This document shows positions 1 to 53,531 of a DNA stretch of 56,000 nt, piece after piece. The notes under the pieces were generated by a model. The model saw only the letters and a list, made by a program, of their open reading frames with translations. It did no database searches and was not told where the DNA came from. The number at the start of each line of letters is the position of its first letter. Positions within the stretch are counted from its first letter, which is position 1. The translations under genes were made by a program, and so were the position numbers. Source of the DNA: Cetorhinus maximus (lineage: Eukaryota); assembly GCF_964194155.1 (NCBI RefSeq), contig NW_027598053.1, positions 1 through 56,000 of the forward strand, in the 5' to 3' direction.

Positions 1-158
1 TGTCTCACTGGAAAGACGGTCCCTCCGTCAGGACTGCTCTCCCTCATAACTGGCACCGGAGGTGTCAGCCGTGGATTCTGGGGGCTTGAGTCTCTGGGTT
101 GGGGATTTGAACGCAGCACCTCCTGACTCAGAGGTAAGAGTACTACCCACTGTCATGC
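1..158 (-). mobile_element. tRNA-derived SINE 5' part (DeuSINE/SacSINE1-like), cut by window edge
   Basis: Minus strand reads cagtgggtagtactcttacctctgagtcaggaggtgctgcgttcaaatcccc, with Pol III A/B-box-like motifs; homologous to the copy at 23051-23471. Confidence 0.7.
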
Positions 159-189
159 TGTGTTGAATAAAATTATCTAGCTGGTGTTC

Positions 190-412
190 TAGAATGATGG
201 AATGGTTACAACACGGAAGGGAGGCCATTCAGCCCATCGTGTCTGAGCCAGCCCTCTGCAAGAGCAGCGAACATGATGTCATTCCGCTACCTTTTCCACA
301 TAACCCTGTCAATTTTTCCCCTTCAGATAATGATCCAATTTTCTGTTCAAAACCATGACTGAATCTTCCTCTAAGCCCCTTCATCCCTGGCACCATTCTA
401 GTACATCTCCAA
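190..412 (-). mobile_element. CR1-clade LINE 3' fragment
   Basis: Typical CR1 tail (gatgggctgaatggcctcc on minus) and remnant RT C-terminal peptide TRMVPGMKG. Confidence 0.6.
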
Positions 413-502
413 TCCTCCCACTTCACCAACTGTCAGAATGAACATGGTTCAGTCTTGGATATGATTAACAGCAGCAATAACGGCAAAATCCAACCCCTGT
501 AA

Positions 503-1345
503 TTACTTGTGAACTCGCCGGTGTCTCAGCAGACTGGATAACTGACTGAAACCCTTCCCACACATAGAGCAGGTGAATGGCCTCTCACCAGTATGAATTC
601 GCTGGTGTCTCAGCAGGGTGGATGAATCTCTGAATCCCTTCCCACATTCAGAGCAGATGGACGGTCTCTCCCTGGTGTGAACTCGCTGATGCATCACCAG
701 GTTGCATAACTGAATGAATCCTTTCCCACATCCAGAGCAAGTGAATGGCCTCTTCCCATTGTGAACACGTTGGTGTGTCTGCAGGTGGGATAATTGAGTG
801 AATCCTTTCCCACACTCGGAACAGATGAAAGGCCTCTCCCCGGTGTGAACTCGCTGGTGTGTCAGCAGGTTGGATGACTGAGGGAATCCCTTCCCACATG
901 TAGAGCAGATGAAAGGCTTCTCCCCGGTGTGAACCCGCTGGTGTGTCAGGAGGGCAGATGAATCGCTGAATCCCTTCCCACACTCAGGGCAGGTGAATGG
1001 CCTCTCCCTGGTGTGAACTCGCTGGTGCATCAGCAGGTTGGATGACTGAGTGAATGCCTTCCCACACTCAGAGCAGATAAGTGGCCTCTCCCCAGTGTGA
1101 ACTCGCTTGTGTGTCAGCAGGTGAGATGAATTACTGAATCCCTTCCCACATTCAGAGCAGACGAAAGGCCTCTCCCCGGAGTGAACTCGCTGGTGTTTCA
1201 GCAGGTTGGATGACTGAGCGAATGCTTTCCCACACTCAGAGCAGGTGAAAGGCCTCTCCCCAGTGTGAATGCGTTGATGAGTTTCCAGCGCAGATGGGGT
1301 GCAGAATCCCTTCCCACAGTCCCCACATTTGTACGGTTTCTCCAT
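503..1345 (-). CDS. C2H2 zinc-finger protein A, 280 aa, 10 intact fingers, no effector domain
   Basis: [17 protein letters not shown]... with ten CxxC-x12-HxxxH repeats and TGERP linkers; ATG in caccATGg context; family 3' UTR motif follows at 424-502. Confidence 0.9.
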
Positions 1346-1698
1346 GGTGCAGGTGTCCTTGTGTCCCTCCAGGTTAACCGCTCAGTTGAAACCTCGTCTT
1401 CACACAGAACATGTGTACAATCTCTCCCCGCTGTGAATGGCGTAATGTTGTTTCGGACTGTGTAACTGTTTAAAGCTCTTTTCACAGTCAGTGCACTGGA
1501 GCACTGTCACTCAGTTGTCTGTGTCTCATTGCTTTTCCAGTCACACTGATGCTTGAAATGTTTTCCCACAGACAGAACAGGGGAACATTTCTCCTTCCAC
1601 ATTCAAAGGGCTGATGATATTCAGGTCCTGATGAATCCAATAAATCTTGATGCGATATTTGGTTTGAGTTTCCCAGATACAAGTCCTCTCCTAATATC
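1346..1698 (-). other. 5' leader of gene A coding exon: three degenerate fingers and uORF 1588-1541
   Basis: Acceptor ttttgtaaactccttttacag| (AG at 1700-1699); uORF MFPCSVCGKTFQASV*; TGA at 1384-1382, 39 nt upstream of the main ATG. Confidence 0.7.
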
Positions 1699-1958
1699 CT
1701 GTAAAAGGAGTTTACAAAAGTCATCATTGTCAGTGCAGGATAAAAATTCACAACACATAATTCTAGTTTCTACGGAACATTCTTTCTCTCATATTCCCCA
1801 GAAGCAGTAACTCTCTGTCCCACACACTGTCCCTCCATTCTCACTCTGCTGTACCTCCCAAATCTCCTGAAGGTGCCATTTCATGCTGATCAGCAGATCC
1901 ATGTGCACTGCTTCCTGTCCAGGGCACAGGGGCCTTTGAAATCATTATGCAGGCTATT

Positions 1959-1981
1959 TATATATATATATATATATATAT
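1959..1981. repeat. (TA)n microsatellite
   Basis: About 11 TA units read directly. Confidence 0.95.
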
Positions 1982-2034
1982 GGAAACATTACTGGATTTA
2001 AAATGTGCATAATATACACTGCATTACTTGATTA

Positions 2035-2285
2035 AAGGTACAGAGAGGATGCAAGGAAGAGCTTTATTTAGGAGCGAGTGTGCATGACCTGGAACTCACT
2101 GCCTACAAGGGTGGAGGAACTCGTGATGATCAGTGATTTCAAAATGAAATTGGTGGACACTTGAAGGAAATAAACTTGTAGGAGAACGGGGTATAGAGGG
2201 AGAATGGGATGGATAGCTCTACAGAGGGTTGGCATGGACTTGAGTTGCTGAATGCATTCCTGTGCTGTAATGACTCGATGACTGG
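2035..2285 (+). mobile_element. CR1 LINE 3' fragment
   Basis: cctggaactcactgcct...gtggaggaa...ttcaaaatgaaattgg...tgtgctgtaatgactc, like other CR1 tails in the window. Confidence 0.6.
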
Positions 2286-2317
2286 AAATATATAACGGTA
2301 GCTAGAGTACTATATTA

Positions 2318-3035
2318 CAAACAAAAACAGAATTACCTGGAAAAACTCAGCAGGTCTGGCAGCATCGGTGGAGAAGAAAAGAGTTGACGTTTTGAGTCCA
2401 CATGACCCTTCAACAGAACTGAAGTATAGTTAGGAGAGGGGTGAAATATAAGCTGGTTTAAGGTGGGGGGCGGGGGGAGAGAAGTTGAGGGTGGGGTGGT
2501 TGTGGGGACAAGCAAGCAGTGATAGGAGCAGATAATCAAAAGATGTCACAGACAAAAGGATCAAAGAGGTGTTGAAGGTGGTGATATTATCTAAGAAAAG
2601 TGCTAATTAAGAATGGATGGCAGGACACTCAAGGTACAGCTCTAGTGGGGGTGGGGTGGAAAGACTGACAAGGTATTAGTTGTAGATTTAAAAATAATGT
2701 AAATAGGTGGGAAAAGAAGAATCTATATAAATTATTGAAAAAAAAACAAAAGGGAGGGGGAAGAAACGGGGTGGGGATGGGGGGAGGGGGAGTTTAAGAT
2801 CTAAAGTTGTTGAATTCAATATTCAGCCCGGAAGGCTGTAAAGTGCCTAGTCGGAAGATGAGGTGCTGTTCCTCCAGTTTGCCCTAACTATACTTCAGTT
2901 CTGTTGAAGGGTCATGTTGGACTCGAAAGGTCAACTCTTTTCTTCTCCACCGATGCTGCCAGACCTGCTGAGTTTTTCCAGGTAATTCTGTTTTTGTTTT
3001 GGATTTCCAGCATCCGCAGTAACTTTTTGTTTTTA
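2318..3035 (-). mobile_element. Penelope-like element 3' end with inverted pseudo-LTR copy
   Basis: 2800-2880(-) encodes ...KLEEQHLIFRLGTLQPSGLNIEFNNF, homologous to the 12956-13285 endonuclease end; the tail at 2320-2432(-) recurs inverted at 2884-2999(+). Confidence 0.75.
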
Positions 3036-3439
3036 TCACTATATTACAAGACTAGACATATTTATAAATGAAAGTTATTATCGGTCAACAAAAAATATAT
3101 CAAATATTTACCATATAAAAACATTGGACATATCTCTGCCCTATATTAGTTTACTGCCACCTTAAATGTCAGGCATCTCCTGGGGAATCCGACTATTTTA
3201 TTGGAAATACTAGGAAAGAGGCTATCCTTTTAGCCAGACAAATAAATGTGTCAAGCTGAGGGAGTAAAGGATGTCAATGTCTTTAAGAGAGAGCGAGAGA
3301 GAAAGAGAGACCTGGGCCAACCTTTCCAGAGTCTGCACCCTCACTGGATTCACTTACTTTCCCTTCAGTACTTGCAGGTCAACAATTTAAACCCAGAATT
3401 AGAAAAGAAATGGAAAGGGGGAGAAAAAGAAAGTGTTTT

Positions 3440-4253
3440 ACTCACAGGTATTTGACACGAGACTGGGGAGAAAGTTTTCGTGTGTGTGAAGCTAAATCCT
3501 CATTCAGAGAGAGAAACAGCATCAGCAGCTTTGCTGGGCAGTAATGGACAGGTTTAAAAGCTCATTGTCCAACATCCGCATTCAAACAATGGGGGAAGCT
3601 CCGTGTCGGCAATGCGACAGTGCCCGCGCTCTGATTGGTTGGAGGACCATCCACCTTCCGGTCGTCCAGCTCCTCCCATTGGCTAACCTCGGTCCGACCA
3701 CAATGAGGGAGAGTAACCCGAGCGCGTGTTCGGTGGAGAGAGTTTGACCATCAAGTCCACTGCACTCAATGTGAACTGGGAACGCTCCTCTGAATCATTG
3801 TGACGCCTGAATCAGCCAATAGGACTGACTGTGCTCCGCGGTGACGTCCTCGGGTTCCAGTTTGCAGACCAGGCGCGCGGACACGGTAGCCCCACCCATT
3901 GTTCCCCATCCCCCTAACCTCCTCGAGCCAAAGTTTCCAGGCAACCGGCTGACGGCTCCGGCCAGAGCGAGAAGCCGCTCAGCGAATTCCCCCTCCCCGC
4001 TCTGTCTACGGCGACTGGCTGGTCCAAAAAGAGATCGAGAGCGACCGCTGACGACAGCCGCACTGCGCCTGCTCCGGACAGAAAGCGCTTTCTGCGCCTG
4101 CGTGCTGGGCTGCCAGCTATGGGAGTGGGGAGGGGACTGTGTAAAATGTCTTCTCCTCATTTTCTTCCAATGCAATTTGATTTTAAACGGCACAGCATTT
4201 GTGTTTAGCTTCATAAACATTAAAACTTCTTCCTCGGTCCAACATCTGTGAGT
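3440..4253. promoter_or_regulatory. Bidirectional CpG-rich promoter shared by head-to-head genes A and B
   Basis: CpG-rich 3540-4140 with CCAAT boxes, gtgacgtc CRE-like sites and NRF1-like tgcgcctgcg; homologous exon-1 ends with GTGAGT donors on both sides (3445 minus, 4248 plus). Confidence 0.7.
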
Positions 4254-4274
4254 AAATCACTTTCTTTCCTTCCC

Positions 4275-4572
4275 CTGGGAAGTACAGAGAGTTGCGGGAC
4301 TCTGTAACTGGAATTAGTGCCAAATATGCTGAGGGGGGAAATGCTGGTGATTTTGTGGAACCAGGCTGATTCTCCAGCTGTTTAAAGTCATATTTATCCG
4401 GTCTATTGAAATGCTATTTGTCTGTTAATGCAGGCTTCATTTATGTTGAATTTAGTTTGATTGTTACCGGAATCGTTTTTAAAAAATAAAACCTTGTCCT
4501 TCTGTTTATTCCGTTGGGGTTGTCTGGGAATTTGTTTATTTTAAGGTTATTGGTTTCCACAGGGATCGTAAC
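4275..4572 (+). mobile_element. LTR-like 3' fragment (unclassified)
   Basis: AATAAA near 4485, then T-rich sequence ending ...gggatcgtaaca (CA end); no internal ORF. Confidence 0.35.
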
Positions 4573-4671
4573 AACAGAGAAATGTCTAGTTATTTATTAT
4601 TCTGTATTAAAGTTCATTTATTATTATTTCTAGTCCTGTAATAATACTGTAGCTGCATTATATATTTCCGG

Positions 4672-4925
4672 TCATAGACTCATTACAGCACAGATGGTGT
4701 CCAATTGGAAACTCAGATCCATGCTGACATTCTGTAGAGTAATCCAGTGAGTCCCATTCTCCATCTGTATCCTCGTTCCCCTGAAAGTTTTTCTTTCAAC
4801 TCCCTATCCAATTTAATTTTGAAACCATTGATCATCTCCGGTTCTGCCATCCTCATAGGCATCGAGTTCCAGGTCATGACTACTTGATGTCTAAATAAAG
4901 TTCTTCCTCATATCCCCTCTGTATT
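4672..4925 (-). mobile_element. CR1 LINE 3' fragment
   Basis: Reverse complement of the same CR1 tail type as 2035-2285. Confidence 0.55.
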
Positions 4926-5618
4926 GCTAATCAAGTATTACAATCTTTTTGGCTCCTTCAGGAGAATTGGGAGTGTATTAATGAGATATAACAGAGTGAG
5001 AATGAAGGGAGTAAAAACAGAAAATGGTGCAAAAAACTCAGCAGGTCTGGCAGCATATGTGGAGCAAGAAACAGAGCTAACATTTTGAATCTGTCTGAAC
5101 ATTCCTGAGAGCTCAAAATGCAGGGAGCATGTTGGGGATGGAGATTTACAGCATTTGGGGAATGAGAGGGGAAAGAATGTTCCATAAAAACTAGAATTGT
5201 CTGTTCTGAATTTCTATCGCAGACTTTCTGTGATGACTTTTGTAAACTCCTTTTACAGGACATTAGAAGGGGATGATTTGCAGTCAGAAAGCTCAAACCA
5301 AAGGTCACGTCAAGATCTGGCAGAGCCACTTGATTCATCGGGATCTGAATATCAGCAGCCTTTGAACCTAGAATAAATATTTGTCTGTTATGTCTGCTTC
5401 AAAATATTTGAAACATCAGTGTGACTGGAAAAGCACCGATTCTCACACACCCGAGTGAGTGTGTTCCAATGCACTGGCTTTGGAACGAGCTATGAACTGT
5501 TATACAGTCTGAAGAAACATTGCCGCGTTCACAGCCGGGAAGACCGTACACAGGTTCTGTGTGTGAATGAGGCTTCAACTGATTGTCAAACCTGGAGAGA
5601 CACAAGGGCACTCGCACC

Positions 5619-6208
5619 ATGGAGAAACCATGGAAATGTCGGGATTGTGGGAAGGGATTCCGATGCCCGTCTGCACTGGAAATTCATCAGCGCAGTAACA
5701 CTGGGGAGAAGCCATTCACCTGCTCTGAGTGTGGGAAGGCATTCAGTGGTTCATGGCAGCTGCACGCACACCAGCGAGTTCATGCAGTGGAGAGGCCGTT
5801 CACCTGCTCTCAGCGTGGCAAGGGATTCAGTGATTCATCAACCCTGCTGAGACACCAGCGAGTTCACACCGGGGAGAGGCCATTCACCTGCTCTCATTGT
5901 GGGAAAGGATTCACTCGGTTATTCAACTTGCAGACACATCAGCGAGTCCACACCGGGGAGAGGCCGTTCACCTGCTCTGTGTGTGGGAAGGGTTTCACCC
6001 AGTCATCCAACCTGCTGCTACACCAGCAACTTCACACTGGGAAGAGGTCATTCCCTGCTCTCAGTGTGGGAAGGGATTCACTCGATTATCCAGCCTGCAG
6101 AGGCGCCAGCGAGTTCACACCGGGGAGAGGCCTTTCATCTGCTCTGTGTGTGGGAGGGGATTCACTCAGTCATCCCATCTGCAGACACACCAGCGTGTTC
6201 ACAAGTGA
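5619..6208 (+). pseudogene. C2H2 zinc-finger gene B, 7 fingers, probable pseudogene
   Basis: MEKPWKC start; 1-nt deletion after 6053 (ttc[a]cctgc) shifts the frame; three fingers lost a ligand (HQRSN, CSQR, RRQRVH). Acceptor at 5258; leader TGA at 5580. Confidence 0.8.
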
Positions 6209-6684
6209 TCACAGCGATTGGATTCTGATCTTATTGCTGCTGTTAATCACGTCCAGAACTGAACCGTGTTCATCCTGACAGTTGGTGAAGTGGGAGGATC
6301 CCTTTATACTGGACTGGCCGGTCTCACAACTTTGTTTCCAGTGGGCTGATGCTCTTTGAGGCTTGTTGCGAATATCCATTGCACATTTCATATGGATCAT
6401 AAAATAAAATGCTATATGGATGGAAAAAGATTTCTGTTTGGAACCTCCCAAAGCATGCCATGTTGCCATGGAGATGGACTGTTGGAGTTAGAAGGTTCTT
6501 TTGTTTAATTTATCTGGGTGTTTCCCACAGAAGGCAGTTGCACATCTGGGATTGTGTAGTTTGCAGCTCACTTGGACTTGGTGAGGGAAAAGAAGCTGGA
6601 AGATTTGCCTGGCTTGGAGCTAGAGGATGAAATCTACAGTGACCCTCCCAGAGAAAGGCCTTGTGGTAGAAAGCAGTTAATCAT

Positions 6685-7385
6685 ATGAATTAGGAGCATG
6701 TGTAGGCCATTCAGGCCTGTGAGCCTGCTCGGACATGTGATAAAATCATAGCTGATCTGATTGAGGCCCCAACTCTACTTTCCTGTCTACCCCCATAATC
6801 TTTGACTCCCTGTCAATCATGAATTAACTCAACCTCAAAATTATTCAATAGCCTCCACTGCTTTCTGGTGAAGAGAATTCCACAATTGACGACCCTGTGA
6901 GAGGACAAATTTCTCATCTCTGTCTCAAATGAGAGACCCCTTATGTTTAAACAGTGGCCCCTAATTGTGGTCTCTCCCATAAGGAGAAACATCCTCAGCC
7001 TCCAAAGTGGCCTGGAGGCACAGATTTGTTTCAGCGCAAAAGGAGGCCATTCAGCCCATCGTGACTGCACCGGCTCTTTGAATGGTCATTTGATTTAGAC
7101 CCGTTCTCCCGCCTTCTACCTATAACCCTGCACGTTCTTCCTTTTCCGGTAACAGTATAATTCCCTTTTGAATGCTTCAATTGAACCTGCCTCCACCACA
7201 CTCCCAGGCAGTGCATTCCAGACCTTAACCACTCGATGCGTGAAGAAGGTTTTCCTCGTGTCACTTTTGCTTCTTTTACCAACTACTTTAAATCTGTGCC
7301 CTCTCGTTTTAGATCCTTTCAAAAGGGGGAACTCATCACATTCTCCCCATCAACCCTGTCCAGACCCCTCATGATTTTGAATACA
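6685..7385 (-). mobile_element. Two adjacent CR1 LINE 3' fragments
   Basis: Peptides TIRGHCLNIRG and KTRGHRFKVVG...FFTHRVVKVWNALPGSVVEAGSIEAFKRELY, typical of the CR1 ORF2 C-terminus. Confidence 0.8.
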
Positions 7386-7389
7386 CTTC

Positions 7390-7685
7390 CAGCCCACTGA
7401 AACACCAGTTCTTCACACTGGGGAGAGGCCATTCACCTGCTCTGAGTGTGGGAAGGGATTCCCTCATCATCCCACCTACTGGCACACCAGGGAGTTCACA
7501 AGTAACTATCGTGATTGGATTTTGCTGTTAATCACAAACAGAATTGAACTATGTTCAATGGGGTCTGTTTCTGCTGATGTTAATAAACTCCAGCCCAGTT
7601 ATAGGGCATAGTATTGTGGATAAAATTCAAATCAGCAGCTTTGTGTTAAATACAGTGTGTTGAGTCTTTTTAGTATCTCTGAGAC
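7390..7685 (+). pseudogene. ZNF remnant: last ~1.5 fingers plus family 3' UTR
   Basis: cacactggggagaggccattcacctgctctgagtgtgggaaggg...gttcacaagtaa followed by the UTR motif; 5' side abuts a CR1 fragment. Confidence 0.8.
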
Positions 7686-7689
7686 AAGT

Positions 7690-8550
7690 TAGTTCCTTTT
7701 GAAGGGCTCTCCCTCTCCCCTGTCTCCTCCATCCTCATCGCCAACAAGTGTGAGAAGCTCATGGAGTTTCTTTGTCACTAAGATTGAAACAATTTGATCA
7801 GCTGCCTCTGCTGCCTCCCTCCCTTCCACTAGATCACCAGTCCAATTGACCTTGAATGTTCCCCCCTCGCCCTGCACGTGCATCTTTCTGTAGTTTCTCT
7901 CCCATGTCCCCTCGTTCCTTCTCAGCACTTAGCTTTGCCATGAGACCCATCTCCTGCTACCCCAGCCCTGTTTTCACTCATCTGTTGATCTCCAAGCTTC
8001 CCATGTTCGTTAACATTGTTAACAGTTCTCTCTCTTCAGTTACTGCTCCTCTCTCCTTCAAATCTGACATTATCACCCCCTCCTCAATAAAATCAACCAT
8101 TGATCCCACCATCCTTGCAAACCACTCCAAGCTCCCTTTCCCCTTCTAAGTCCTGAAATGTGTTGACACCTCCCAAATCCTGCCCATCTTTTTGGAATTC
8201 CATTTTTGAATCTGAACATATGAAATATGAGCAGAAGTAGGCCATTTGGCCCCTCGACAAATAAGATTTCTGCCTCTGCCACGTTATCAAAGTAACTCTT
8301 CTCAGTCCCTAACTGCATCCAATGTAACCAAGGTAAACTCTCCCTCATTGTCCTTTGACCTTCTTGGCCCATCTACAGTCTTTGACACAATTGACCAAAC
8401 CATCCATAGGGATGGTGAATAAATGCTGGCCTAGCCACATCTCATGAATGAATTATAACAAAAATTCCTTCAATGCCTCTTCACTGTTGTCCAGCTGGGT
8501 GGGACTGATCCCTGATTCCTTTCTTATCAAATTGTAGCAAGAGGATCAAC
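7690..8550 (+). mobile_element. L2-type LINE RT fragment, decayed
   Basis: Homologous to 15255-15930(+) and 31255-32210(-); the latter encodes NYCPISSLSFLSKVL and HSTETALIQITNDIL. Confidence 0.65.
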
Positions 8551-8959
8551 TGCAGTAGCAGTGATTATTTGAGGTTTTTTTTACAAACTGACTCACTGGG
8601 AAAATGATCAGGTGTCACTGGACATTAACATAAAAATGTTCCATTATCAGTCTCACATTGATTGTCTCTTACAGACCAAGTCCTTCTAAATATATCACCG
8701 CTCCTGGATCAACAGGAAAAAGTGAAGACGGTATAGTCCATAACCCAATCTAACAGCAGTAAAAATATCTGAAAATTCCCATTAAAATGCAAGGCATTGC
8801 AGAGCAACTGTGGCTTCTGTGACTTATTGAAACCGAGTCATTACACAGATTGGCCAAAAGCTCCATTATTGCAGGATGCGGATGGTAGAAGATGGAGTTT
8901 GATCCTTCTTATTTTTCAACACCGACATTAGCGGAATCTCACCCCCACTTCCCTAGAAT

Positions 8960-9420
8960 CAAATGAAGATTAAGTGAGTTCGATCTCTAATGGCGGCCGC
9001 AGTACCCACAATACCACACGGCTCAGAAACCGCTCTATCTGCCGCGGGTTGGCCGGGTGGGTCGCGCATGCTCGGAGGGTCCTGGTCTCTTTGTTTGAGG
9101 TTGTTCCCCGGGAAGAAGCCGGAAGCGGCGGATAGTGAGAGTGGAGAATGTTCATTGTTTAATATTCGGCTCTGGGGCCGCACTCGGGATTTGTAAACCC
9201 CGCCCCCCTGCCCGGGGTTTATCCACCTGACAGTTCACGATGCGCGGCTGATTGACGGCGGAGCTAGACCAATAGGAAGAGGGGGCGGGGTTGGGGGCAT
9301 GAGCACTGACGGCTGATCCTCCAACCAATTAGAGTGAATGAGGGGCGGGGCTGAGTCCAGATCAGCCTCATTGGCTGAAACTCTGCATCATTTTGAAATG
9401 GGCAATTGGAGATGTCACAG
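8960..9420. promoter_or_regulatory. Copy of the ZNF CpG promoter module, no intact gene adjacent
   Basis: atggcggc (YY1-like), tacccacaatac (ZNF143-like), gcgcatgc, tgattgacgg-N10-ccaat, two GC boxes and a second CCAAT; paralogous to 16520-17420. Confidence 0.65.
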
Positions 9421-9429
9421 AGCTGGAAG

Positions 9430-9995
9430 CAGGCAGCCTGGAGTATTGTGTGCAGTTTTCGTCTCCTTACCGAAGAAAGGATATACTTGTCACAGAGGAA
9501 GTGCCTGCAAAGCTTCACCATCCTGATTCCTGGGATGGCAGGATTGTTGTATGAGGAGAGTTTTGGGTCGACTAGGGCTGTATTCACTGGAGTTCAGAAG
9601 AATGAGAGGGGCCGTCATTGAAACGTTTAAAATTCGGACAGAAGTGTACAGACTGGATGCAGGGATGATGTTTCCCCAGGCTGGGTTTGGAGGGGTGGGT
9701 GGTGGGGGGCGTCTGGAACAAGGGGTCAGTCTCAGGATATGGTGCAGGCCATTTCGGACTGAGTTGCGGTGAAATTTATTTGCTCAGTGCATGGTGAACC
9801 TGTGGAATTGTCTACCACAAAAGGCTGTGGAGGCCAAATCGCTGAATAGATTTCTAGACATGAAAGGCATCAAGGTGTTTGGGAAAAGAGGGGGAGTATG
9901 ATGTTGAGGTAGAGGGTCAGCCATGATCACTTGAATGGAAGAGCAGGCTCGAGGGGCCAAATGGCCTACTCCTGCTCCTATTTTCTATGTTTCTA
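9430..9995 (+). mobile_element. CR1 LINE 3' fragment
   Basis: ctggagtattgtgtgcagtt motif, RLGLYSLEFRRMRG peptide, tail ggggccaaatggcctactcctgctcctattttctatgtttcta. Confidence 0.85.
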
Positions 9996-10109
9996 AGTGT
10001 CTATGCCTTGGTAAAGGAGCGGATGTTGGTCACAAAATCAGCTCAGGGTGAAATCAACGTTGAGATGATGAACAATGTGGCTCAGACTCAGACAGTGGCC
10101 AGAATAACA

Positions 10110-11580
10110 ACAGAACAATAGAATCCAACCAATACAGTCAGATGTGAACTTATTGGTGTGTCAGAAGGTTGAATGATCGAGTGAATCCCTTCCCAGATTC
10201 AGTGCAGGTGAATGGTTTCTCTCCATTGGTATTTCATCTGATCTTTAGAGCTTTGAAAACTCTTCAGACAGTGAGAACAATTAAAAGGTCTCTTATCAGA
10301 GTGAACAACTTGATGGGCAGTGAGATTGGACACACAAGTGAATCAGGATCGGATGTGTCAATAAATTTCAGTTATGGAGCAGCTCTATTAAGAGAAAGGC
10401 AGGACAAACTTAAAGACGAAATGTAAAGTTCAGGCAGTGATTTACAGAACAACATGAGCTCTATACTTCTCTTGTCATATCTAGACAGCAGAGCACACTT
10501 CTTTCCTTGGAGCTTCCAGTTTTCTTGTGGAGTTTCCAGCTTTTGTGTTTCTTTCTCTTCTTTCCTTTGTTCTTTTCTCCACTGTACCAAATCCCTCAGG
10601 TGGACTGTTCTTAGTTGGAAACCCCCCCGCCAACTGGCTCCCCTGAGACCACCAATCAGAACTGTCCATGGACATTTCACTATTCAATCATGTGGCTCTT
10701 GTCCAATCACAGGTGTGTTCATGTGAACAGCATTCGCCTGTTGATGAAAGCACACATATTCCTCTATGATTACATAGAACTCCTGCACTTCCACCATTTC
10801 ACAGTTCTAAACTCAGACAAGCCGGTTCAAAGCATGACATCACCTCCAGAGATTCTACCCTACAGATCAACACACAGGCAAAGAAAGAACACAACTCCTG
10901 CAGACTATATTAATACACAGTCAAAGAAAGAACAGAATTCTCACAGACTGTATCCGGAGAATGGATGACTGAGTGAATCTCTTCCCACACACGGAGTAAG
11001 TTTTACGGTTTCTCCTCACTGTGAATGTGCTGGTGTTTCTGGAAGCTGGATGATTCAGTGAATCCCTTCCCACACACAGTGCAGGTGAATGGCCTCTCCC
11101 TAGTGTGACTGTGCCAATGAGTTCCCAGCCGGGATAGAGAACTGAATCCCTTCCCACAGTCCCCACATTTCCACGGTTTCTCCCTGTTGCTTAATCCTTG
11201 CTGACAATTCTTACTGATTTACACACTCTTCAAAGTGAAGCCTCCATTATGAAATTAAATTATCAAACAACAGGAATCAAAGCAGTGAAATATTTTACAG
11301 GCACATCAATAAAAGCTTAATCAATCAACATTGATACTGATGAAGTTTGGAAGTCGCTGAGTTCAACCATTTCTCACACAGCAGCAGTAACATTTGGTAA
11401 AGGGGAATCCACAATAAAGGCTGGTTTGAGACCTACTCAGCAGAGATGACATCTATCATTGAAGCAAAAAGCAAAGCCGACCTGATGCATAACATAAACC
11501 CAACAGCTAAGTACTGTGTGCAGTACCCTGTTGCTAGTGTCCATGTGTCTCTCCAGGTTGGACGATCAGTTAAGCCTTAC
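10110..11580 (-). pseudogene. Decayed ZNF gene interrupted by two insertions
   Basis: Finger-coding DNA at 10140-10345 and 10950-11191, leader at 11526-11580 ([20 protein letters not shown]); insertions at about 10345-10945 and 11192-11525. Confidence 0.8.
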
Positions 11581-11581
11581 A

Positions 11582-12130
11582 CAGGATTATATAGGATATA
11601 CAGCACAGAAAGAAGCCATTCAGCCCAACCAGTGCATGTTGGTGTTTATGTTCCACTCAAGCCACCTCTCATCTTTCCACTTCTAAATCTACCATCATGA
11701 GCTAATATTTCCTTCAGCCACATATGTTTGTCTAGCCTCCCCATGAATACATCTATACTATTCACTTCACCCACTTCCTGTGGTCTTGAGTTCCACATTC
11801 TCACCACTCTCTGGGCGAAGAAGTTTCTTCTGAATTCCCTACTGGATTTCTCGGTGACTATCTTATATTGATGGTCTCTAGTTTTGCTCTTCCCCACAAG
11901 AGGAAACATTCTCTCTGTTTCCTCTCCATTAAAACTTTCATCATTTTAAAGTCCTAAATTAGTTCAGCTTCAGACATCTTTTTTCAAGAGAAAAGAGATC
12001 CAGTCTGTTCATCCTCTCCTGATATGTAAACCCATGCATTTCTGATATCATTCTTATCAATTTTCTCTGCACCCTCTCCAGTGTCTCTATATCCTTTCTA
12101 TAATTTGGTGACCAGAACTGCACACAGTAC
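11582..12130 (-). mobile_element. CR1 LINE 3' fragment
   Basis: YCVQFWSPNYRKDIETLERVQRK and FFAQRVVRMWNS peptides. Confidence 0.85.
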
Positions 12131-12164
12131 TTGGCTGTTGGGTTTATTTTGTGTGTCAAAAGGA

Positions 12165-13785
12165 GATCTTCCCTCCACAGTTTCCAACCTCATAGTCTCC
12201 CAACCTCCCATAACTCTTTCTCCGGTACATCGATGACTGCTTCGGTGCTGCTTCATGCTGTCACCTTGACCTGGAAAAATGTATTAATTTTGCTTCCAAT
12301 TTCCACCCCTCCAACACTTTCACATGGTCTATCACTGACACTTCCCTTTCCTTCTTTGAACTCTCTGTCTCAATTTCTGGTGATAGACTGTCCACCAATA
12401 TTCATGACAAGCCCACCGACTCCCACAGCTACCTCGACTACAGCTTCTCACACTCTGCTTCCTGTTAGGACTCCATCCCATTCTCTCAGTTCCTTCGCCT
12501 CCGTCGCATAGTTCCGATGATGCCACTTTCCAAAACAGTTCTTCTGACATGTCTTCCTTCTTCCTTAACTGAGGTTTTCCACCCACGGTGGTTGACAGGG
12601 CCCTCAACCGTGTCCAACCCATCTCCTGCGCATCTGCCCACACACCTTCCTCTCCCTCCCAGAACCATGATAGGGTCCCCCTTGTCCTCACTTATCATCC
12701 CACCAGCCTCCGTATTCAAAGGACCATCCTCCGCCATTTCCGCCAGCTCTAGCATGATGCCACAACCAAACACATCTTCCCTTCACCCCCCCGTCGGCAT
12801 TCTGTAGGGACCATTCCCTCCGGGACACCCTGGTCCACTCCTCCATCACCCCCTACACCTCAACCCCCCCCACCCCATGCAACCGCAGATGGTACAGCAC
12901 CTGCCCCTATACTTCCCCCCTCCTCACCGTCCAAGGGCCCAAACACTCCTTTCAAGTGAAGCAGCATTTCACTTGCACTTCCATCAATTTAGTCTACTGC
13001 ATTTGCTGCTCCCAATGTGGTCTCCTCTACATTGGAGAGACCAAACGCAGACTGGGTAACCGCTTTTTGGAACACCTTTGGTCTGTCCGCAAGCATGACC
13101 CAGATCTGCCTGTTGCTTGCCATTTCAACACCCCATCCTACTCTCATGCTCACATGACCGTTCTTGGCCTGCTGCAATGTTCCAGTGAAGCTCAACGGAA
13201 ACTGGAGGAACAGCACCTCATCTTCCAATTAGGCACTTTTCAGCCTTCTGGACTTAACAATGAGTTCAACAACTTCAAGTCATGAACTCTCTCCTCCATC
13301 CTCACCCCCTCTTTTATCCCCCTTTTTAAATTTAATTTTATTTTTATATATATATTTCTTTTCCCACTGATTTCTATTGTTATTTTTGAAATTTATTTAT
13401 ATTCATTGTTTATTCCCCACCTTTAAGCCTATTTCGATCCCCTCCCCCACACCTCGTCCCCACTAGGGCCATCTGTCACTGCTCATCCTGCTTTCCACCC
13501 TTAATGTCACCATTAGCACATCCTTTAGCTCATATCACCATCGTCAACACCCCTTTGACCTTTTATTTATGACATCTTTTGCAGTCTCTCCTTTGCCTCC
13601 ACCGATCACTGGCCCTCTATCCAGCTTCACCTGTCCCACCCCCTTTAACCGCTTATATTTCATTACATTTCTATTTCTCTTTAGTTCTGATGAAGAGTCA
13701 TATGGACTCGAAATGTTAACTAGTCTTTCTCTCCACAGATGCTTTCAGACCTGCTGAGTTTTTCCAGCAATTTTTGCTTTTGTTC
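12165..13785 (+). mobile_element. Penelope-like element, 5'-truncated: RT remnant, GIY-YIG endonuclease and tail
   Basis: FLRYIDDC-type RT motif near 12218 (ctccggtacatcgatgactgc); ORF 12956-13285 with NLVYCICC..CGLLYIGET..RL..RF.EH (GIY-YIG); tail carries a hammerhead motif. Confidence 0.85.
13682..13722 (+). ncRNA. Minimal hammerhead-ribozyme motif in Penelope-like tail
   Basis: TAGTT-CTGATGA-A-GAGTC-atatg-GACTC-GAAA-TGT-T-AACTA: canonical core, 5-bp stems I and II; stem III palindrome ACGT changed to ATGT. Confidence 0.6.
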
Positions 13786-19019: not shown

Positions 19020-19285
19020 AAGAAACATACTTTATTTGACAAAGTAAAACAAGCCGATTTCCAGAATATTGAATATCTAGTCCAGTTACAGAGCTTATTA
19101 ACATCAGTAGAAACAAACCCAAACTATCAGAATGAACATGGTTCAGTCCTGGATGTGATTAACAGCAGAATCCAACCCCTGGAGTCTCTGCTGAACTTGC
19201 TGGTGTGTCAGCCGGTTGGATGATGGATTAAACCCCTTCTCACACATGGAGCAGGTGTCTGGTCTCTCCCCAGTGTGAACTCACT
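19020..19285 (-). pseudogene. ZNF remnant: last finger plus family 3' UTR
   Basis: Minus strand cacactggggagagacc...acctgctccatgtgtgagaagggg...ctgacacaccagcaagttc, then the UTR motif. Confidence 0.75.
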
Positions 19286-19788
19286 GCTGTGTGTCTTAGA
19301 GCTGATGGTTTTTCCCCATGCACCAGCTGCTCTTGTCTTTCCAGGTGGTGGGGCTCATGAGTTTGGGAAATTGTATCAAAATTCTGGGTTGAGTTGCAGG
19401 GCTATGAAATCCTTCTCCTTTTCCCCTCCTCCACCTCTCACTCTCTCTTCTCCCTTTGAGGCCAGAGTCTTTTGTAGCCCAGACTGGGAGGCAGGTTCCT
19501 TTCCCTGAAGGACATTAGTGAACCAGTTGGGTTTTTATGACAATCCAACAGTTTTCGTGGTCACTTTTTCCTAGTGCCGACCCCACAAATTACGGGATTC
19601 GTTCAGCTCAATTTCACAACCTATCTTTGTGTTTTTGTGAATTCTCTTTCATATTTTTTGTTTCTGTTTTGAATTCACTTTACAAGCTACTAGAAGGATT
19701 TGCAGTCGGGAAAGTCAAACCAAAATCACATCCAAATCTGCCAGAGTGGCTTGATTCATCAGGACCTGAATATGATTATCCTTTGAAC

Positions 19789-20826
19789 ATGGAAGCAAAA
19801 AGCACCGTTCACACCAGAGAGAAACCGTGGAAATGTGGGGACTGTGGGAAGGGATTCAGATCCCCATCCAATCTGGAAACCCATCGACGCAGTCACACCG
19901 GGGAGAGGCCGTTCATCTGCTCCGTGTGTGGGAAGGGATTCACTTAGTTAATCTGCCTTCAGAGACACCAGCGACTTCACACTGGGGAGAGGCCATTCAC
20001 CTGCTCCGTGTGTGGAAAAGGATTTACTCGCTCATCCCACCTGCTGGAACACCAGCAAGTTCACACTGACAAGAGAGATTTTAAATGCCCCAACTGTGAA
20101 AAGAGCTTTAAAAACCCACATGGACTGAGGGAGCACCAGCGCATTCACACTGCGCATGCACCATTCAGCTGCTCACAGTGTGGGAAGAGGCTCAGGACAT
20201 CATCCCGCCTTCTGAAACACCAGCGAGTTCACACTGACGAGAGACCGTTTAAATGTCCAGACTGTGGGAAGTGCTTCAAAAGTTCTGGGCATCAACAATG
20301 TCATCAACGTATTCACACTGATGAGAGACCGTTCAGGTGTTCTCACTGCGGGACTGGGTTCAGGCAACCATCTCATCTCACTGCACACCAGCGCATTCAC
20401 ACTAGGGAGAGACCGTTCACCTGCTCTGAGTGTGGGAAGAAATTCACTCAGAAACCCCACCTGCTGAGACACCAGCGAGTTCACACTGACGAGAGGCCGT
20501 TTAAATGTCCAGACTGTGGGAAGTGCTTTAAAAGTTCTGGGGATCTGCAATACCACCAACGTATTCACACTGATGAGAAACCATTCAGATGCTCTCACTG
20601 TGGGACTGGGTTCAGGCAATCATTTCACCTCACTGCACACCAGCGCACCCACACTGGGGAAAGGCCGTTCACCTGCTCCGAGTGTGGGAAGGGGTTCGCT
20701 CAATCATCCAACCTGCTGACACACCAGCAAGTTCACACTGGGGAGAAGTCATTCACCTGCTCCAAGTGTGGGAAGGGATTCACTCGCTTATCCTACCTGG
20801 TGACACACCAGAGAGTTCACAAGTGA
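19789..20826 (+). pseudogene. C2H2 zinc-finger gene C, 12 fingers, single in-frame TAG at 19945-19947
   Basis: [16 protein letters not shown] start; ORFs 19537-19947 and 20008-20826 share a frame (GKGFT*LICLQRH); all zinc ligands otherwise intact. Confidence 0.8.
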
Positions 20827-25266: not shown

Positions 25267-25857
25267 TCATATGTGAAACTTCTGGTGTCTCTTCAAGTTA
25301 GATGAAAAAGTGAGTCCCTTCCCACAGACGGGGCAGTTGAAAGGCCTCTCCCCAGTGTGAACTCGCTGGTGTCTGTGCAGGTTGTGCGACCGAGTGAATC
25401 TCTTCCCACACACACAGCAGGTGAACGGCCTCTCCCCAGTGTGAACTCGCTGGTGTTTCAGCAGATTTATCGGTCCTTTGAAACTCTTCTCACAGTCAGA
25501 GCATTTAAACAATCTCTGATCACTGTGAACAAGTTGATGTGTCAGCAGAGCAGATGACTGAGTGAAGCCTTTCCCACACACAGAGCAGGTGAACGGCCTC
25601 TCCCCAGTGTGAACTCGCTGGTGGGTCCCCAGGTTAGATGAGCTCATGAATCCCTTCCCGCACACAGAACAGCTGAACGGCCTCACGCCACTGTGAACAC
25701 GCTGGTGTGTCAGAAGATTTGATAACTGCGTGAAACCCTTCCCACAATCGGTGCAGGTGAACGGCCTCTCCCCAGTGTGTATACGCCGATGAATTTCCAG
25801 CTGGGATGGGGAAATGAATCCAGTTTCACAGTCCCCACATTTCCACGGTTTCTCCGT
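25267..25857 (-). CDS. C2H2 zinc-finger protein D, 7 intact fingers, ACG at the family start position
   Basis: Frame open from (T)[13 protein letters not shown] at 25857 to the stop at 25269-25267; acceptor at 26103; leader TGA at 25896-25894. Confidence 0.75.
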   Translation of the reverse strand, partial: TEKPWKCGDCETGFISPSQLEIHRRIHTGERPFTCTDCGKGFTQLSNLLTHQRVHSGVRPFSCSVCGKGFMSSSNLGTHQRVHTGERPFTCSVCGKGFTQSSALLTHQLVHSDQRLFKCSDCEKSFKGPINLLKHQRVHTGERPFTCCVCGKRFTRSHNLHRHQRVHTGERPFNCPVCGKGLTFSSNLKRHQKFHI

Positions 25858-26352
25858 GGTGCCGGTGCCCTTGTGTCTCTCCAGATTGGATGATCAGTTG
25901 AATGCTTGTCCACACACACACACAGAAAACACGTGTATGTGGAATTCACAACATCCCACGGTAAATGCTGTAATTTTTGTTTTCAAGTTGTATAACTAGG
26001 TAAAGGTGATATTCTGCTCCTGATGAATCAAGTGACTCTGTTAGATCTTGATGTGATGTTTTGTTTGAGTTACCAGTGTATAAATTCTCCCTTCTGATGC
26101 CCCTGTAAGCAGAGATTTCAAAAGTCCTCATTGTAAGCACGGCATAGAAATGAAGAACAGTTACTTTTAGTTCCTATGGAACATTTTTTCTCTCTTGTTC
26201 CCCCAAAGCTGCAAATCCCCGTCCCACACCCTCTCCCCCCTCCCTGGGTTGAAATCTAAATAAAGTGTTGGATAATTCTCTGTATCCTTTTAATAAATTC
26301 TACAACTGGAGATCATGTTTTACAAGGGGCCATTTGTTAACAGTTTCCCAAA

Positions 26353-32421: not shown

Positions 32422-33639
32422 TTACTTGTGAACTTGCTGGTGTCTCAGCAGGTTGGATGAGGTAGTGAATCCCTTCCCACACTGGAGGCAAGTGAATGGT
32501 CTCTCCCCAGTGTGAACTCGCTGGTGTGCCAGCAGGTTGGATGAGGTAGTGAATCCCTTCCCACAATGGGGGCAGGTGAATGGCTTCTCCCCAGTGTGAA
32601 CTCGTTGGTGTGTCAGCAGGTGGGGTGAATGACTAAATGCCTTCCCACACTGGGGGCAGGTGAATGGCTTCTCCCCAGTGTGAATTCGTTGGTGTGCCAG
32701 CAGGTTGGATGAGGTAGTGAATCTCTTCCCACACTGAGGGCAGATGAATGGCCTCTCCCCAGTGTGAATTTGCTGGTGTCTCAGCAGGGTGGATAACTGA
32801 GTGAATCCCTTCCCACACTGGGGGCAGGTGAATGGCTTCTCCCCAGTGTGAACTCGCTGGTGTCTCAGCAGGTGGGATGAGGTAGTGAATCTCTTCCCAC
32901 ACTGAGGGCAGATGAATGGCCTCTCCCCAGTGTGAATTTGCTGGTGTCTCAGGAGGCTAGATAACTGAGTGAATCCCTTCCCACACTGGGGGCAGGTGAA
33001 TGGCCTCTCCCCAGTGTGAACTTGCTGGTGTGTTAGCAGGCTGTGTGACTCAGTGAATCCCTTCCCACACTCAGAGCAGGTGAACAGTCTTTCCCCCGTG
33101 TGAACTTGCTGGTGTCTCAGCAGGTGGGATGACTGAGTGAATCCATTCCCACACTGGAGACAGATGAATGGCCTCTCCCCAGTGTGAATTCGCTGGTGTA
33201 CAGTGAGTTGGGATGATCCCCTGAACCCAGTCCCGCATTTAGAGCACTTAAATGGTCTCTTGTCAGTGTGAACACATTGATGGGACATCAGCTCTCAGGA
33301 ACTTTTATAGCACTTCCTGCAGTCTGGGCATTTAAAAGGTCTCTCTTCACTGTGAACTCGCTGGTGGCTCAGCAGGTGGGCTGAAAGAGTAAATCCCTTC
33401 CCACAATTTGAGCAGGTGAACGACCTCTCCCCAGTGTGACTGCGCCGATGCCCTTCCAGCTCAGATGGGAATCTGAATCCCTTCCCACAGTCCCCACATT
33501 TCCATGGTTTCTCCCGGATGTGGCTGTGCTTGTGTCTTGACAGGCCAGATGATCGGTTGAAACCTCGTCCACACACAGGACACGTGTACGATTTCTCTCC
33601 ACTGTGAATGGTGCTTTTTCCTTCCACGTTCAAAATCAA
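32422..33639 (-). CDS. C2H2 zinc-finger gene E, 14 fingers split by in-frame TGA (33297-33295); ATG 33288 gives a 288-aa, 10-finger ORF
   Basis: ORFs 33295-33639 and 32422-33288 share a frame ([14 protein letters not shown]); the upstream part has no in-frame ATG (GTG at 33627); acceptor at 33735. Confidence 0.75.
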
Positions 33640-34639
33640 ATGATATTCAGGTTACGATAAATCGGGCGACTGTCAGATTCTGCTGTGATGTTTTGTTTCT
33701 GTTTCCTGACTGCAAATCCTCTCCTTCTAATCCCCTGTGAAACTGATTTAAAACAGAAAAAAGGGAGTGAGAGAGAACCCACAAAATCACAAAGGCAGGT
33801 TGAGCTGAATGAATCTGGTAATTTGTGGGGCTGGCACGAGGCAAAAGTGACCATAATGCTGGATTGTCATAAAAACCCAACTGGTTCACTAATGTCCTTC
33901 AGGGAATGGAACCTGTCACCTGGTCTGGGTCTACACAAGACTCTGCCTCCATGGGAGGAAAGAGAGAGGTGGGAGATGCAGGGGGTGAAGATGTGTTTAA
34001 TACATCTTCAGCTCAACCAGAACTTTGGCAGAATATCCCAAGCCCTCAACGTCCCACGACCTAGAAGGACGAAGGTAACAGGTGTCAATGAACACCATCA
34101 CCTCCAGCTCACACACTGTCCTGACTTGTCTGACATGCAGTACTGGATGAGCAGAAATTTCCTCCATTTAAATGTTGGGAAGATGAAAGCCATTGTTTTC
34201 AGTCCCTGCTACAAACTCCACTCCCTAACCACTGACTCCATCCCTCTTGCAGCTCTCTGAGGCTGAACCAGACTGTTCACAATCTTGTTGTCATATTTTA
34301 GCCCAAGCTGAGCTTCTGACTACAAATCACTAAAACCAGCCATTTCCACCTCAGTAAAATCGCCCAACTGTGTTCCTGCCTCAGTTCATCTGCTGCTGAA
34401 ACTCATCCATTCCTTTGTTCCCTCTAAACTGAAAGATTTGACTGTGCTTCTTGTCGGCCTCCCAGATTCAACTCCATAGAAACTGGAGGTCACCCAAAAC
34501 TCAGCAGCTCATGTCCTTACTTGTACCAAGTCTTGTTCACCATCATCCCCTGTGTTCCCTGACGGTCGTGGTCGTCTCCAGCCCTTCAGCCTTCCAGGAT
34601 TATCTGAGATCATCTAATTCTGACCCACCCCTGGCTCCA

Positions 34640-44553: not shown

Positions 44554-44916
44554 TGTAAACTCCTTTTACAGGGCATTCAGAGGGTTGGATTTGCAGATGG
44601 GAAATTCAAACCAAACATCATGTCAGGATCTGATAGAGTCACTCGATTCATCAGAACCTGAATATCATCGGCCTTTGAATTTGGAAGAAGAAATGTCTGT
44701 CTGTAAGGAAAGATTTTAAACAACGTTGTGACTGGAATAGCACTGAGACATACACACATGAGTGAGAGTGTTCCAGTGCAATGATTGGAAAGAGTTTTAA
44801 CCAGCCTGAAAAAAAAGTGCACCATTCACAGCAGGGAGAGACTGTACACGTGTTCTGTGTGTGGATGAGGCTTCAACTGATTGTCAAACCTGGAGAGAAA
44901 CAAGGACACCCACACC

Positions 44917-52432: not shown

Positions 52433-52952
52433 GGATTTGGATTTCAGCACGGTAGGAGGGAGAGTGTGTGGGATGAGGATTTGCAGGAACATGAGGGGAA
52501 AACATGTTCCATAGAAACAAGACTTGTCTGTTCAGAATTTCTGTCCTGTATTTACAGTGATGAGTTTTGTAAATCCTTTTCTAGGATATTAGAACGGGTG
52601 GATTTACAGACAGGAGGCTCAAACCGAACATCACAGCATAAACTGATAGAGTCACTCGATTCATCAGGACCTGAAGATCATCAGCCTTTCAATGTGGATG
52701 GAGAAATGTTTGCCTGTTCAGTCTGTGTGGAAATGTTTCAAACATCAGTGTGACTGGAAAATCACCAAGACACACATTCACCTGAGTGAGAGTGTTCCAG
52801 TAAACTGACTGTGGAAAGTGCTTTAACCAGTTACACAGCCTGAAAAAACTTCACACCATTCACAGTGGGGATAAACTGTACATGTGTTCAGTGTGTCTGG
52901 ACAAGGCTTCAACTGATCCTCAAACCTTAAGAGACACAAAGACAGCAGCACT

Positions 52953-53531
52953 ATGGAGAAACCATGGAAATGTGAGGACTGTGGAAAAGAATTCAATTCT
53001 TCATCCCGGCTGAAAATCCATCAGCGCATTCACACACGGGAGAAGCTGTTCAGCTGTTCTGTGTGTGGGAAGGGATTCACTCGGTCATCCGGCCTTCCAT
53101 CACACCAGCGAGTTCACACTGAGAAGAAGCCATTCAGCTGCACAACCTGTGGAGAGAAGTTCAAGTCTTCATCCATCCTCACTGAACACCAGCGGATTCA
53201 CATGGGTGGGAGACCATTCACTTGCTTCGTGTGTGGAAAGGGATTTACTCAGGTATTCACCCTCCAGTCACACCATCGAATGCACACAAAGGAGAATCCA
53301 TTCAGCTGTACTTCCTGTGGAAAGAGTTTCAGGCAGTCAACCGACCTCAATGAACACCAACGTACTCACACCGGGGAGAAGCCGTTCACCTGCTCCGTGT
53401 GTGGGAAGGGATTCCCTTGGTCATCCCAACTACTGACACATCAGCGAGTTCACACCGGGGACAGACCATTCACCTGCTTCTTGTGTGGGGCGGGATTCAC
53501 TCAGTCACAACACCTGCTGAGACACGAGTGA
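52953..53531 (+). CDS. C2H2 zinc-finger protein G, 192 aa, 6 intact fingers plus a truncated 7th
   Basis: MEKPWKCEDCGKEF start; TGA at 53529 (HE*VHK) precedes the family stop at 53541; acceptor at 52584; uORF 52706-52753; leader TGA at 52914. Confidence 0.85.
   Translation: MEKPWKCEDCGKEFNSSSRLKIHQRIHTREKLFSCSVCGKGFTRSSGLPSHQRVHTEKKPFSCTTCGEKFKSSSILTEHQRIHMGGRPFTCFVCGKGFTQVFTLQSHHRMHTKENPFSCTSCGKSFRQSTDLNEHQRTHTGEKPFTCSVCGKGFPWSSQLLTHQRVHTGDRPFTCFLCGAGFTQSQHLLRHE

Follow-up and report, generated by a model that had tools for sequence, protein, structure and literature searches.

Long-form genes of a clustered C2H2 zinc-finger family in Cetorhinus maximus carry two fixed stop codons, an ATG in the linker that follows them and an unconstrained leader of 350–370 nt. 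Probably one ancestor of this branch lost its front end, and the protein predicted from the linker ATG consists of fingers only. The window, meaning the whole 56,000-nt stretch analysed here, was identified in a six-frame scan as a shark tandem C2H2 zinc-finger cluster with eight finger arrays, members of a gene family spread over a 65-Mb chromosome (C24).

Finger arrays in the window and the paralog sample

Gene A is of Kruppel type, with 10 PF00096 finger stretches (E 2e-73) and TGEKP-type linkers in one exon. Its ORF has fingers from residue 1, and no domain besides C2H2 fingers was found among the 25 of 44 Pfam rows listed. The features of the window are as follows.

503–1345, minus strand: gene A ORF, 280 aa, 10 C2H2 fingers
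1343–1345, minus strand: ATG in the linker of gene A, the predicted start (MEKP), in the context CACCATGG
1382–1384, minus strand: inherited stop (TGA) of gene A in the third fossil finger (FN*), 39 nt 5' of the ATG
1541–1543, minus strand: the other inherited TGA of gene A, in the first fossil finger (SV*)
1346–1698, minus strand: gene A leader from the conserved splice acceptor to the ATG, a spacer and three fossil fingers under neutral drift
3446–3700, minus strand: predicted first exon of gene A, non-coding, with donor GTGAGT at 3445 and an approximate 5' end
4060–4247, plus strand: predicted first exon of gene B, non-coding, with its donor at 4248 and an approximate 5' end
5259–5621, plus strand: gene B leader, with TGA 5422, TGA 5580 and ATG 5619
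11182–11568, minus strand: pseudogene P, long form, with TGA 11568, AGG 11529–11527 and a 344-nt insertion
19789–19821, plus strand: gene C, short form without finger 3, with upstream ATG (MEAKSTVH) at 19789 and linker AGA
25857–25896, minus strand: gene D, long form, fingers 1–2 mostly lost by deletion, with TGA 25896 and ACG 25857
33500–33734, minus strand: gene E, short form, with acceptor 33734, finger 3 with CGA 33555 and linker CGG, ORF broken
44572–44919, plus strand: gene F leader, with TGA 44729, TGA 44878 and ATG 44917
52751–52955, plus strand: gene G fossil fingers, with TGA 52751, TGA 52914 and ATG 52953

The gene B ORF is frameshifted after about five fingers, that of gene C is broken after 42 codons, and the short-form start site of gene E (33627, window 33625–33627) reads GTG. 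The 344-nt insertion of pseudogene P lies beyond the AGG and is flanked by two copies of a 10-nt target-site repeat (11526–11535 and 11182–11191). Genes A and B lie head to head (3400–4300) with related non-coding first exons, and the TGCGC-rich promoter sequence between them may resemble NRF1 sites. In gene F (45271–46531) a finger block is repeated internally at an offset of 672 nt, with identical listed finger translations, and remnant finger sequence lies on the opposite strand upstream of gene C (about 19230–19300).

An earlier note on this DNA had described a TGA 39 nt before the start, and this was confirmed in genes A (TGA 1384–1382, ATG 1345–1343), B (5580 and 5619), F (44878 and 44917) and G (52914 and 52953). 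The codons given for gene D (TGA 25896 with ACG 25857) and for the pseudogene (TGA 11568 with AGG 39 nt on) read as cited, as do the arginine linker codons of C (AGA), E (CGG) and the pseudogene (AGG). The proposed stop context FN*xxNLxxH is present in A, B, D, F and G, but the pseudogene has LN*; gene E does have CGA 33555 in an intact finger, but its ORF breaks 72 codons past the linker. That note did not have the other fixed stop, a TGA in the first fossil finger (A 1543–1541, B 5422, F 44729, G 52751).

Exact matches in the 4.0-Gb genome (G000) numbered 569 for a 35-nt anchor placed on the first coding finger, 125 for a variant anchor and 312 for ATG joined to a slightly shorter anchor. 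Anchor places lie mostly along the 65-Mb chromosome, where nearly all of the first 100 of the 569 matches fall, the arrangement of clustered birth-and-death paralogs. Fetched for comparison were 210 loci, 30 by similarity to gene A, 90 from the first 100 of the 569 matches and 90 from the first 100 of the 125. The 248 anchors on them were collapsed at 93% identity to 89 clusters, reduced to 85 after four internal or junk anchors were dropped, and then to 82; gene counts were taken after this collapse. Since two exact anchor patterns and one similarity search were used, the sample favours conserved copies; 27 near-identical copies of gene A were among the anchors, in part through choice of query. 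Pseudogene P, L031 and L105m5917, whose alignment is disturbed by insertions or a second gene, do not enter the statistics of the long form, and gene D and L071 were reassigned by sequence from short to long form after the CpG spectrum count. A recent segmental amplification (L001–L026, L052–L055) holds about 25 copies of gene A at 95–100% identity, and the block P-C-E-F occurs repeatedly on the same chromosome.

Two subfamilies and the origin of the stop codons

The 82 distinct genes divide into 60 of long form and 22 of short form, the latter comprising 16 genes and a further six that also lack finger 3. The term 'family-wide' in the earlier note was accordingly too broad, the pattern being the mark of one of two subfamilies. 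Intron tail, acceptor and a 40-codon spacer are common to all genes of both forms. In the long form the leader consists of this spacer and three fossil fingers, and its majority line (VLEGEDLQ...NVEGEMFVCSVCGKRFQTSV*LEKH...FQ[C/*]TDCGK...) keeps a single frame from a phase-1 acceptor to MEKP. The short form is 144 nt shorter, has no fingers 1–2 and starts at a different, upstream ATG, found at MEGKSTVH in 13 of the 16 genes and in all six of the set without finger 3. Its finger-3 codon is CGA in 11, CAA in four and TGA in one (n=16), and its linker codon GGG in 11, AGG in six, CGG in two, AGA in two and GGA in one (n=22), GGG being both commonest and basal. The short start reads AAC-ATG where the long form reads AAT-GTG, and the short-form ATG, a second new start codon, probably arose by CpG decay.

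A tree was built from 82 rows and 364 columns, from which fingers 1–2, the focal codons, the short start and the CpG columns had been removed. It splits long from short form at 100/98, and finger 3 is lost on three separate branches. With no outgroup or inferred root, a bootstrap still short of convergence (0.962) and no resolution along the backbone of the long form, the tree leaves the order of events and the polarity from long to short to inference.

The focal TGA is present in 48 of the 60 long-form genes and the linker ATG in 51, so the leader pattern is not due to chance. It could be proposed that the TGAs are independent CpG deaminations of an arginine CGA in many copies. The site is indeed a mutable CpG, as the CGA, CAA and TGA of the short branch show, and CpG decay is heavy throughout the leader. 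Independent decay would, however, yield TG and CA about equally, as at other CpGs. Among 58 long-form genes the CG/TG/CA counts are 1/48/0 at the focal site and 2/47/0 at the finger-1 stop, with CA thus in 0/58 and CG in 1/58 at the focal site, whereas true CpGs of the leader gave 16/21/19 (12 nt from the focal site), 27/15/15, 26/9/16 and 21/14/12. A genome-wide pattern that left both sites free matched 75 times, always with T at the focal C/T (42 TGA and 33 TAA in a hand count, 28 of the 33 TAA matches being one amplified sequence), while the CpG 12 nt upstream was CG in 14, TG in 24 and CA in 37 of the same matches; the pattern with C at the focal site had 0 matches in the genome. On the tree the focal site changes once within the long form, as against 15–23 changes at nine CpG sites. 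Independent decay is thereby refuted within the sample and is hardly credible in general; it was the case that the earlier note had set up against its own reading, and it fails. Judged from these sequences, the long-form TGA is inherited from a single origin, and the view of the earlier note that the pattern was inherited, with three fingers turned into leader, a start in the linker and amplification afterwards, stands.

A 15-codon upstream ORF, in frame, ends at the finger-1 TGA. Finger 2 has a third stop (TGC/TGA), which varies both inside species and from one species to another.

The predicted linker start codon and the leader

The context CACCATGG, which we take to fit the Kozak consensus, surrounds the start in 34 of the 60 long-form genes. 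Other linker states of the long form (GTG, ATA, ACG, ATT, CTG, AGG and one TCT) are mostly single changes from ATG, and GGG occurs in 0 of the 60. The earlier note had derived ATG from AGG on the strength of the arginine codons in genes C and E and the pseudogene; as argued, this does not hold, since C (AGA) and E (CGG) are short-form genes of the sister subfamily, with a different start, and do not reveal what preceded the ATG of the long form, the commonest and basal linker in that subfamily being GGG. Both of the long-form copies that carry AGG are broken genes, with ATG in their nearest relatives, although this nearest-neighbour check is weak (79–83% identity, ungapped). In the short branch AGG is preceded by C in five of six cases, as CpG decay of C|GGG predicts. 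The change from GGG to ATG takes two steps, and possible intermediates are AGG, by CpG decay of ACC|GGG, or GTG, which is equally short; a gain of ATG from AGG is plausible but unproven.

Measured against the long-form majority line, the leader contains 221 indels (34 multiples of three and 187 frameshifting) and 133 new stops in 6718 codons, and the first coding finger past the anchor 0 indels and one stop in 1020 codons. Plain pN/pS (0.6–0.9 in the leader) was set aside because transitions bias it, and was redone per substitution class. For transitions, N/S comes to 0.97 in the leader when this is read in the finger frame, to 1.15 and 1.02 in its other frames and to 0.41 in the coding finger; the transversion N/S of the coding finger, 1.44, counts against a reading of constraint. 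When the leader was translated with X at the TGA, zf-C2H2 family matches appeared at residues 43–65, 74–109 and 99–121. By sequence, then, the fossil fingers keep homology to fingers but show no coding constraint (judged by indels, stops and an N/S close to 1), and the leader is best described as drifting neutrally, with constraint starting at the ATG.

An ORF of at least 190 codons is kept in 43 of the 60 long-form genes, 17 being broken. The ATG is retained in 39 of the 43 intact genes (98th percentile of 312 leader triplets) versus 12 of the 17 broken ones, a difference that is not significant (Fisher p=0.10). The focal TGA is kept in 36 of the 43 intact genes (81st percentile), and lies at the 65th to 81st percentile overall; since the in-frame upstream ORF is also at baseline, the stops appear to be passengers. 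Translation from MEKP is predicted from the constraint boundary, the ATG retention and the start context, and initiation there should be lowered by the upstream ATGs, of which a leader has a median of 4. Few indels (eight in 60 genes) fall within the 60 nt that precede the long-form ATG, through weak constraint or an alignment effect.

The leader was compared with transcripts through contigs of four runs, guessed to be RNA and from four other organisms, on the near-majority locus L174. Summed contig depth rises across the acceptor 10- to 45-fold (611 to 26917, 132 to 6044, 1245 to 12868 and 1067 to 37322), and several contig pieces start at the acceptor, their 5' portion being unaligned. Of the pieces listed, seven span the TGA and two continue past the ATG, and no GT-AG skip of the leader was found among the 15 of 128 contig joints listed. 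On gene A one contig piece covers 1263–1498 with nine differences, and pieces end at the predicted donor 3445; the small run X19 has no cover of 1387–1527, which counts neither way. The short-form junction is present in two of the runs. The earlier note had named splicing out of the leader as a refutation; contigs from these presumed RNA runs of other organisms pass through it and it looks exonic, contig depth being a poor measure that gives support and not proof.

The donor motif of the first exon was found in five of the 82 genes, and in these five first exons there is neither an ATG-started frame into the spacer nor a coding first exon as in FiNZ-ZNF genes. Assignment as a KRAB zinc-finger gene was rejected, given fingers from residue 1, a spacer without Pfam match and no start-to-donor frame in the 5/82 first exons. 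In catshark models and contig joints the spacer occurs twice in tandem (L174:4130–4253 in run X11, joint 4252 to 4130; P0127, P0131, P0156), possibly as a duplicated spacer exon or by back-splicing.

A reading in which the leader is a selected translation control, with the stop and upstream ORF (MFVCSVCGKRFQTSV*) tuning re-initiation or the TGA read through, could draw on the upstream ORF being whole in 30 of 60 copies, on the eight indels in the last 60 nt versus about 12 per 20 nt elsewhere, on the change from TGA to TAA keeping a stop in 33 of the 75 matches, and on leaders 87–90% alike between paralogs. Retention of the upstream ATG (42/55), of its stop (46/57) and of the focal TGA (48/60) is nevertheless that of the leader baseline (median 0.76), the TAA argument reduces to the one amplified sequence, cartilaginous fishes evolve slowly (PMC8455134, in its available text), and the 187 frameshifting indels exclude read-through of the fossil fingers, leaving this reading improbable. 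A conserved regulatory upstream ORF was rejected as its start, stop and frame are not above background, and a read-through protein or selenoprotein as the frame upstream of the TGA is broken by the frameshifts and new stops and the codon replaces arginine. A further improbable reading takes the pattern as a trace of segmental duplication only, with the majority of long-form copies untranslated or the leader part of an intron. The 17 broken ORFs and the large recent duplications, seen in the gene A copies that choice of query partly enriched, would suit it, but the counts were made after the 93%-identity collapse, disruptions cease at the ATG, and the leader follows a conserved acceptor and is crossed by contigs.

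Probable loss of the front end, age and relation to known families

On the preferred reading, one ancestral gene would have lost its N-terminal part and then been amplified in a burst, compatible with the unresolved backbone. This ancestor may have coded through the acceptor, the spacer and fingers 1–3, because the majority leader is still one frame from the phase-1 acceptor to MEKP. Stops would have arisen in fingers 1 and 3 by CGA to TGA, and the linker GGG would have become ATG in two steps, in the context CACC-ATG-G. Exon-junction-dependent decay spares transcripts with stops in the last exon; all the stops here lie in the last known exon, and the transcript would therefore escape it. Ribosomes may reach MEKP past the upstream ATGs by leaky scanning or re-initiation, and the stops would now be passengers, with only the ATG and what lies downstream kept. 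The short branch would have solved the same problem separately, by a 144-nt deletion of fingers 1–2 and a start at AAC-ATG, this and the AAT-GTG of the long form being presumably two decay products of one CpG.

The direction could be reversed, with the short form ancestral, two fingers inserted and then decayed, and the AGG-type codons of C, E and P near the ancestral state. The sole ray protein seen (P0014) has a front finger like that of the short form, both shark superorders include short forms (P0123, P0126, P0148) and the tree lacks an outgroup root. Against this, fossil fingers 1 and 2 match their neighbours at 37–41 of 66 nt, like other pairs, and so are not recent internal copies; deletions recur in the family, as in the three losses of finger 3 and in D and L071; and linkers of the short branch are mostly GGG. 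The long form is the likelier ancestor because fingers 1–2 are as distant as any finger pair and deletions recur, and we consider the reverse order unlikely.

All named true hits of the spacer profile (15 hits, then 39) are sharks, as far as the 20 looked up and those named in the 15-hit search go. Rows P0145, P0155, P0157, P0159 and the weak P0153, being long low-complexity or unrelated, were not used, and P0137, P0140 and P0166 were excluded because they may not be independent. This profile found neither a spacer in rays or chimaeras nor an upstream domain, which does not show absence. A protein search with gene A residues 1–60 was swamped by non-shark fingers (five chondrichthyan rows among the 120 of 947 matches listed), and one with the read-through leader of L030 returned one candidate, none significant.

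Stops in other sharks were inferred from protein ends. Proteins end at FQTSV, the finger-1 stop, in Pristiophorus japonicus (Squalomorphii; P0121, P0122) and Heterodontus francisci (Galeomorphii; P0129), and at GQGFN, the finger-3 stop, in Carcharodon (P0130), with the finger-1 stop alone seen in the squalomorph shark. The linker ATG is found in Heterodontus (P0132) and Mustelus (P0095) and, in shifted frame, in Stegostoma (P0142) and Scyliorhinus (P0133); short forms are found in Pristiophorus, Heterodontus, Carcharodon, Mustelus and Scyliorhinus. By these protein sequences the long form and its first stop are older than the split of the two shark superorders. The split of Orectolobiformes from other sharks, placed at about 181 million years in the available text of PMC11406177, gives a minimum age of the linker ATG. 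We would suggest, quite tentatively, that the fingers-only state is derived, an ancestor with a coding upstream exon having been decapitated twice before the shark radiation, once by stops and a linker ATG and once by a deletion and a CpG-born ATG, and these two events having given rise to almost all of the hundreds of genes present today.

NCBI 'zinc finger protein X-like' shark models (P0095, P0123, P0132, P0148) belong to the same family, and some begin at MEKP or contain MEGK/MEERST. Such models handle the leader unevenly, with short ORFs to the fossil stops, fusions and frames bridging stops, and none describes it. Models P0121, P0122, P0129 and P0130 translate dead leader, one of them fused to histone H2A, and are likely artefacts.

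As far as the available text of PMC10547256 goes, the cyprinid FiNZ-ZNF genes are like the shark family in their hundreds of clustered paralogs, shared 5' end and single finger exon, and one morpholino could target most of their starts. FiNZ and KRAB genes differ in a coding first exon with an N-terminal domain, the FiNZ domain having 28 residues, whereas the five shark first exons have no such frame and the spacer is dead. In its main text that paper uses none of the terms shark, cartilaginous and chondrich-. The accessible parts of PMC2443715 and PMC2865497 describe mammalian KRAB/SCAN-ZNF genes that, like the shark genes, lost N-terminal parts by degeneration followed by duplication and have untranslated fossil fingers; ZNF252 has eleven fossil fingers in its 3' UTR and an out-of-frame KRAB-A upstream. 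Those cases, as given there, are single genes with 3' fingers or effector boxes, whereas in sharks 5' fingers became leader once, with a linker start, in the larger family branch across orders. KRAB families are reported lost in cartilaginous fishes, where substitution is slow (available text of PMC8455134), and the main text of a survey of shark and ray tandem genes (10.1101/2025.06.08.657570), in its accessible form, does not mention zinc fingers. The literature covered, with subscription journals lying outside it, yielded no account of such a leader, and a motif search returned 0 papers. Effector loss and untranslated fossil fingers were thus already known in mammals, and the shark leader is a real, old and mostly neutral fossil shared by descent.

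That the stops are apparently neutral passengers makes the finding less surprising. It supplies a gene model for the larger branch of a chromosome-sized transcription-factor family, with a predicted MEKP start and a 350-nt untranslated fossil leader, and it explains mis-built database proteins. The two fixed stops are markers with which the family can be dated and classified across sharks, and a start context common to most copies would make it practical to probe function in catshark by a family-wide translation block, as for FiNZ in zebrafish. Start codons can, on this evidence, arise inside coding fossils and found whole subfamilies.
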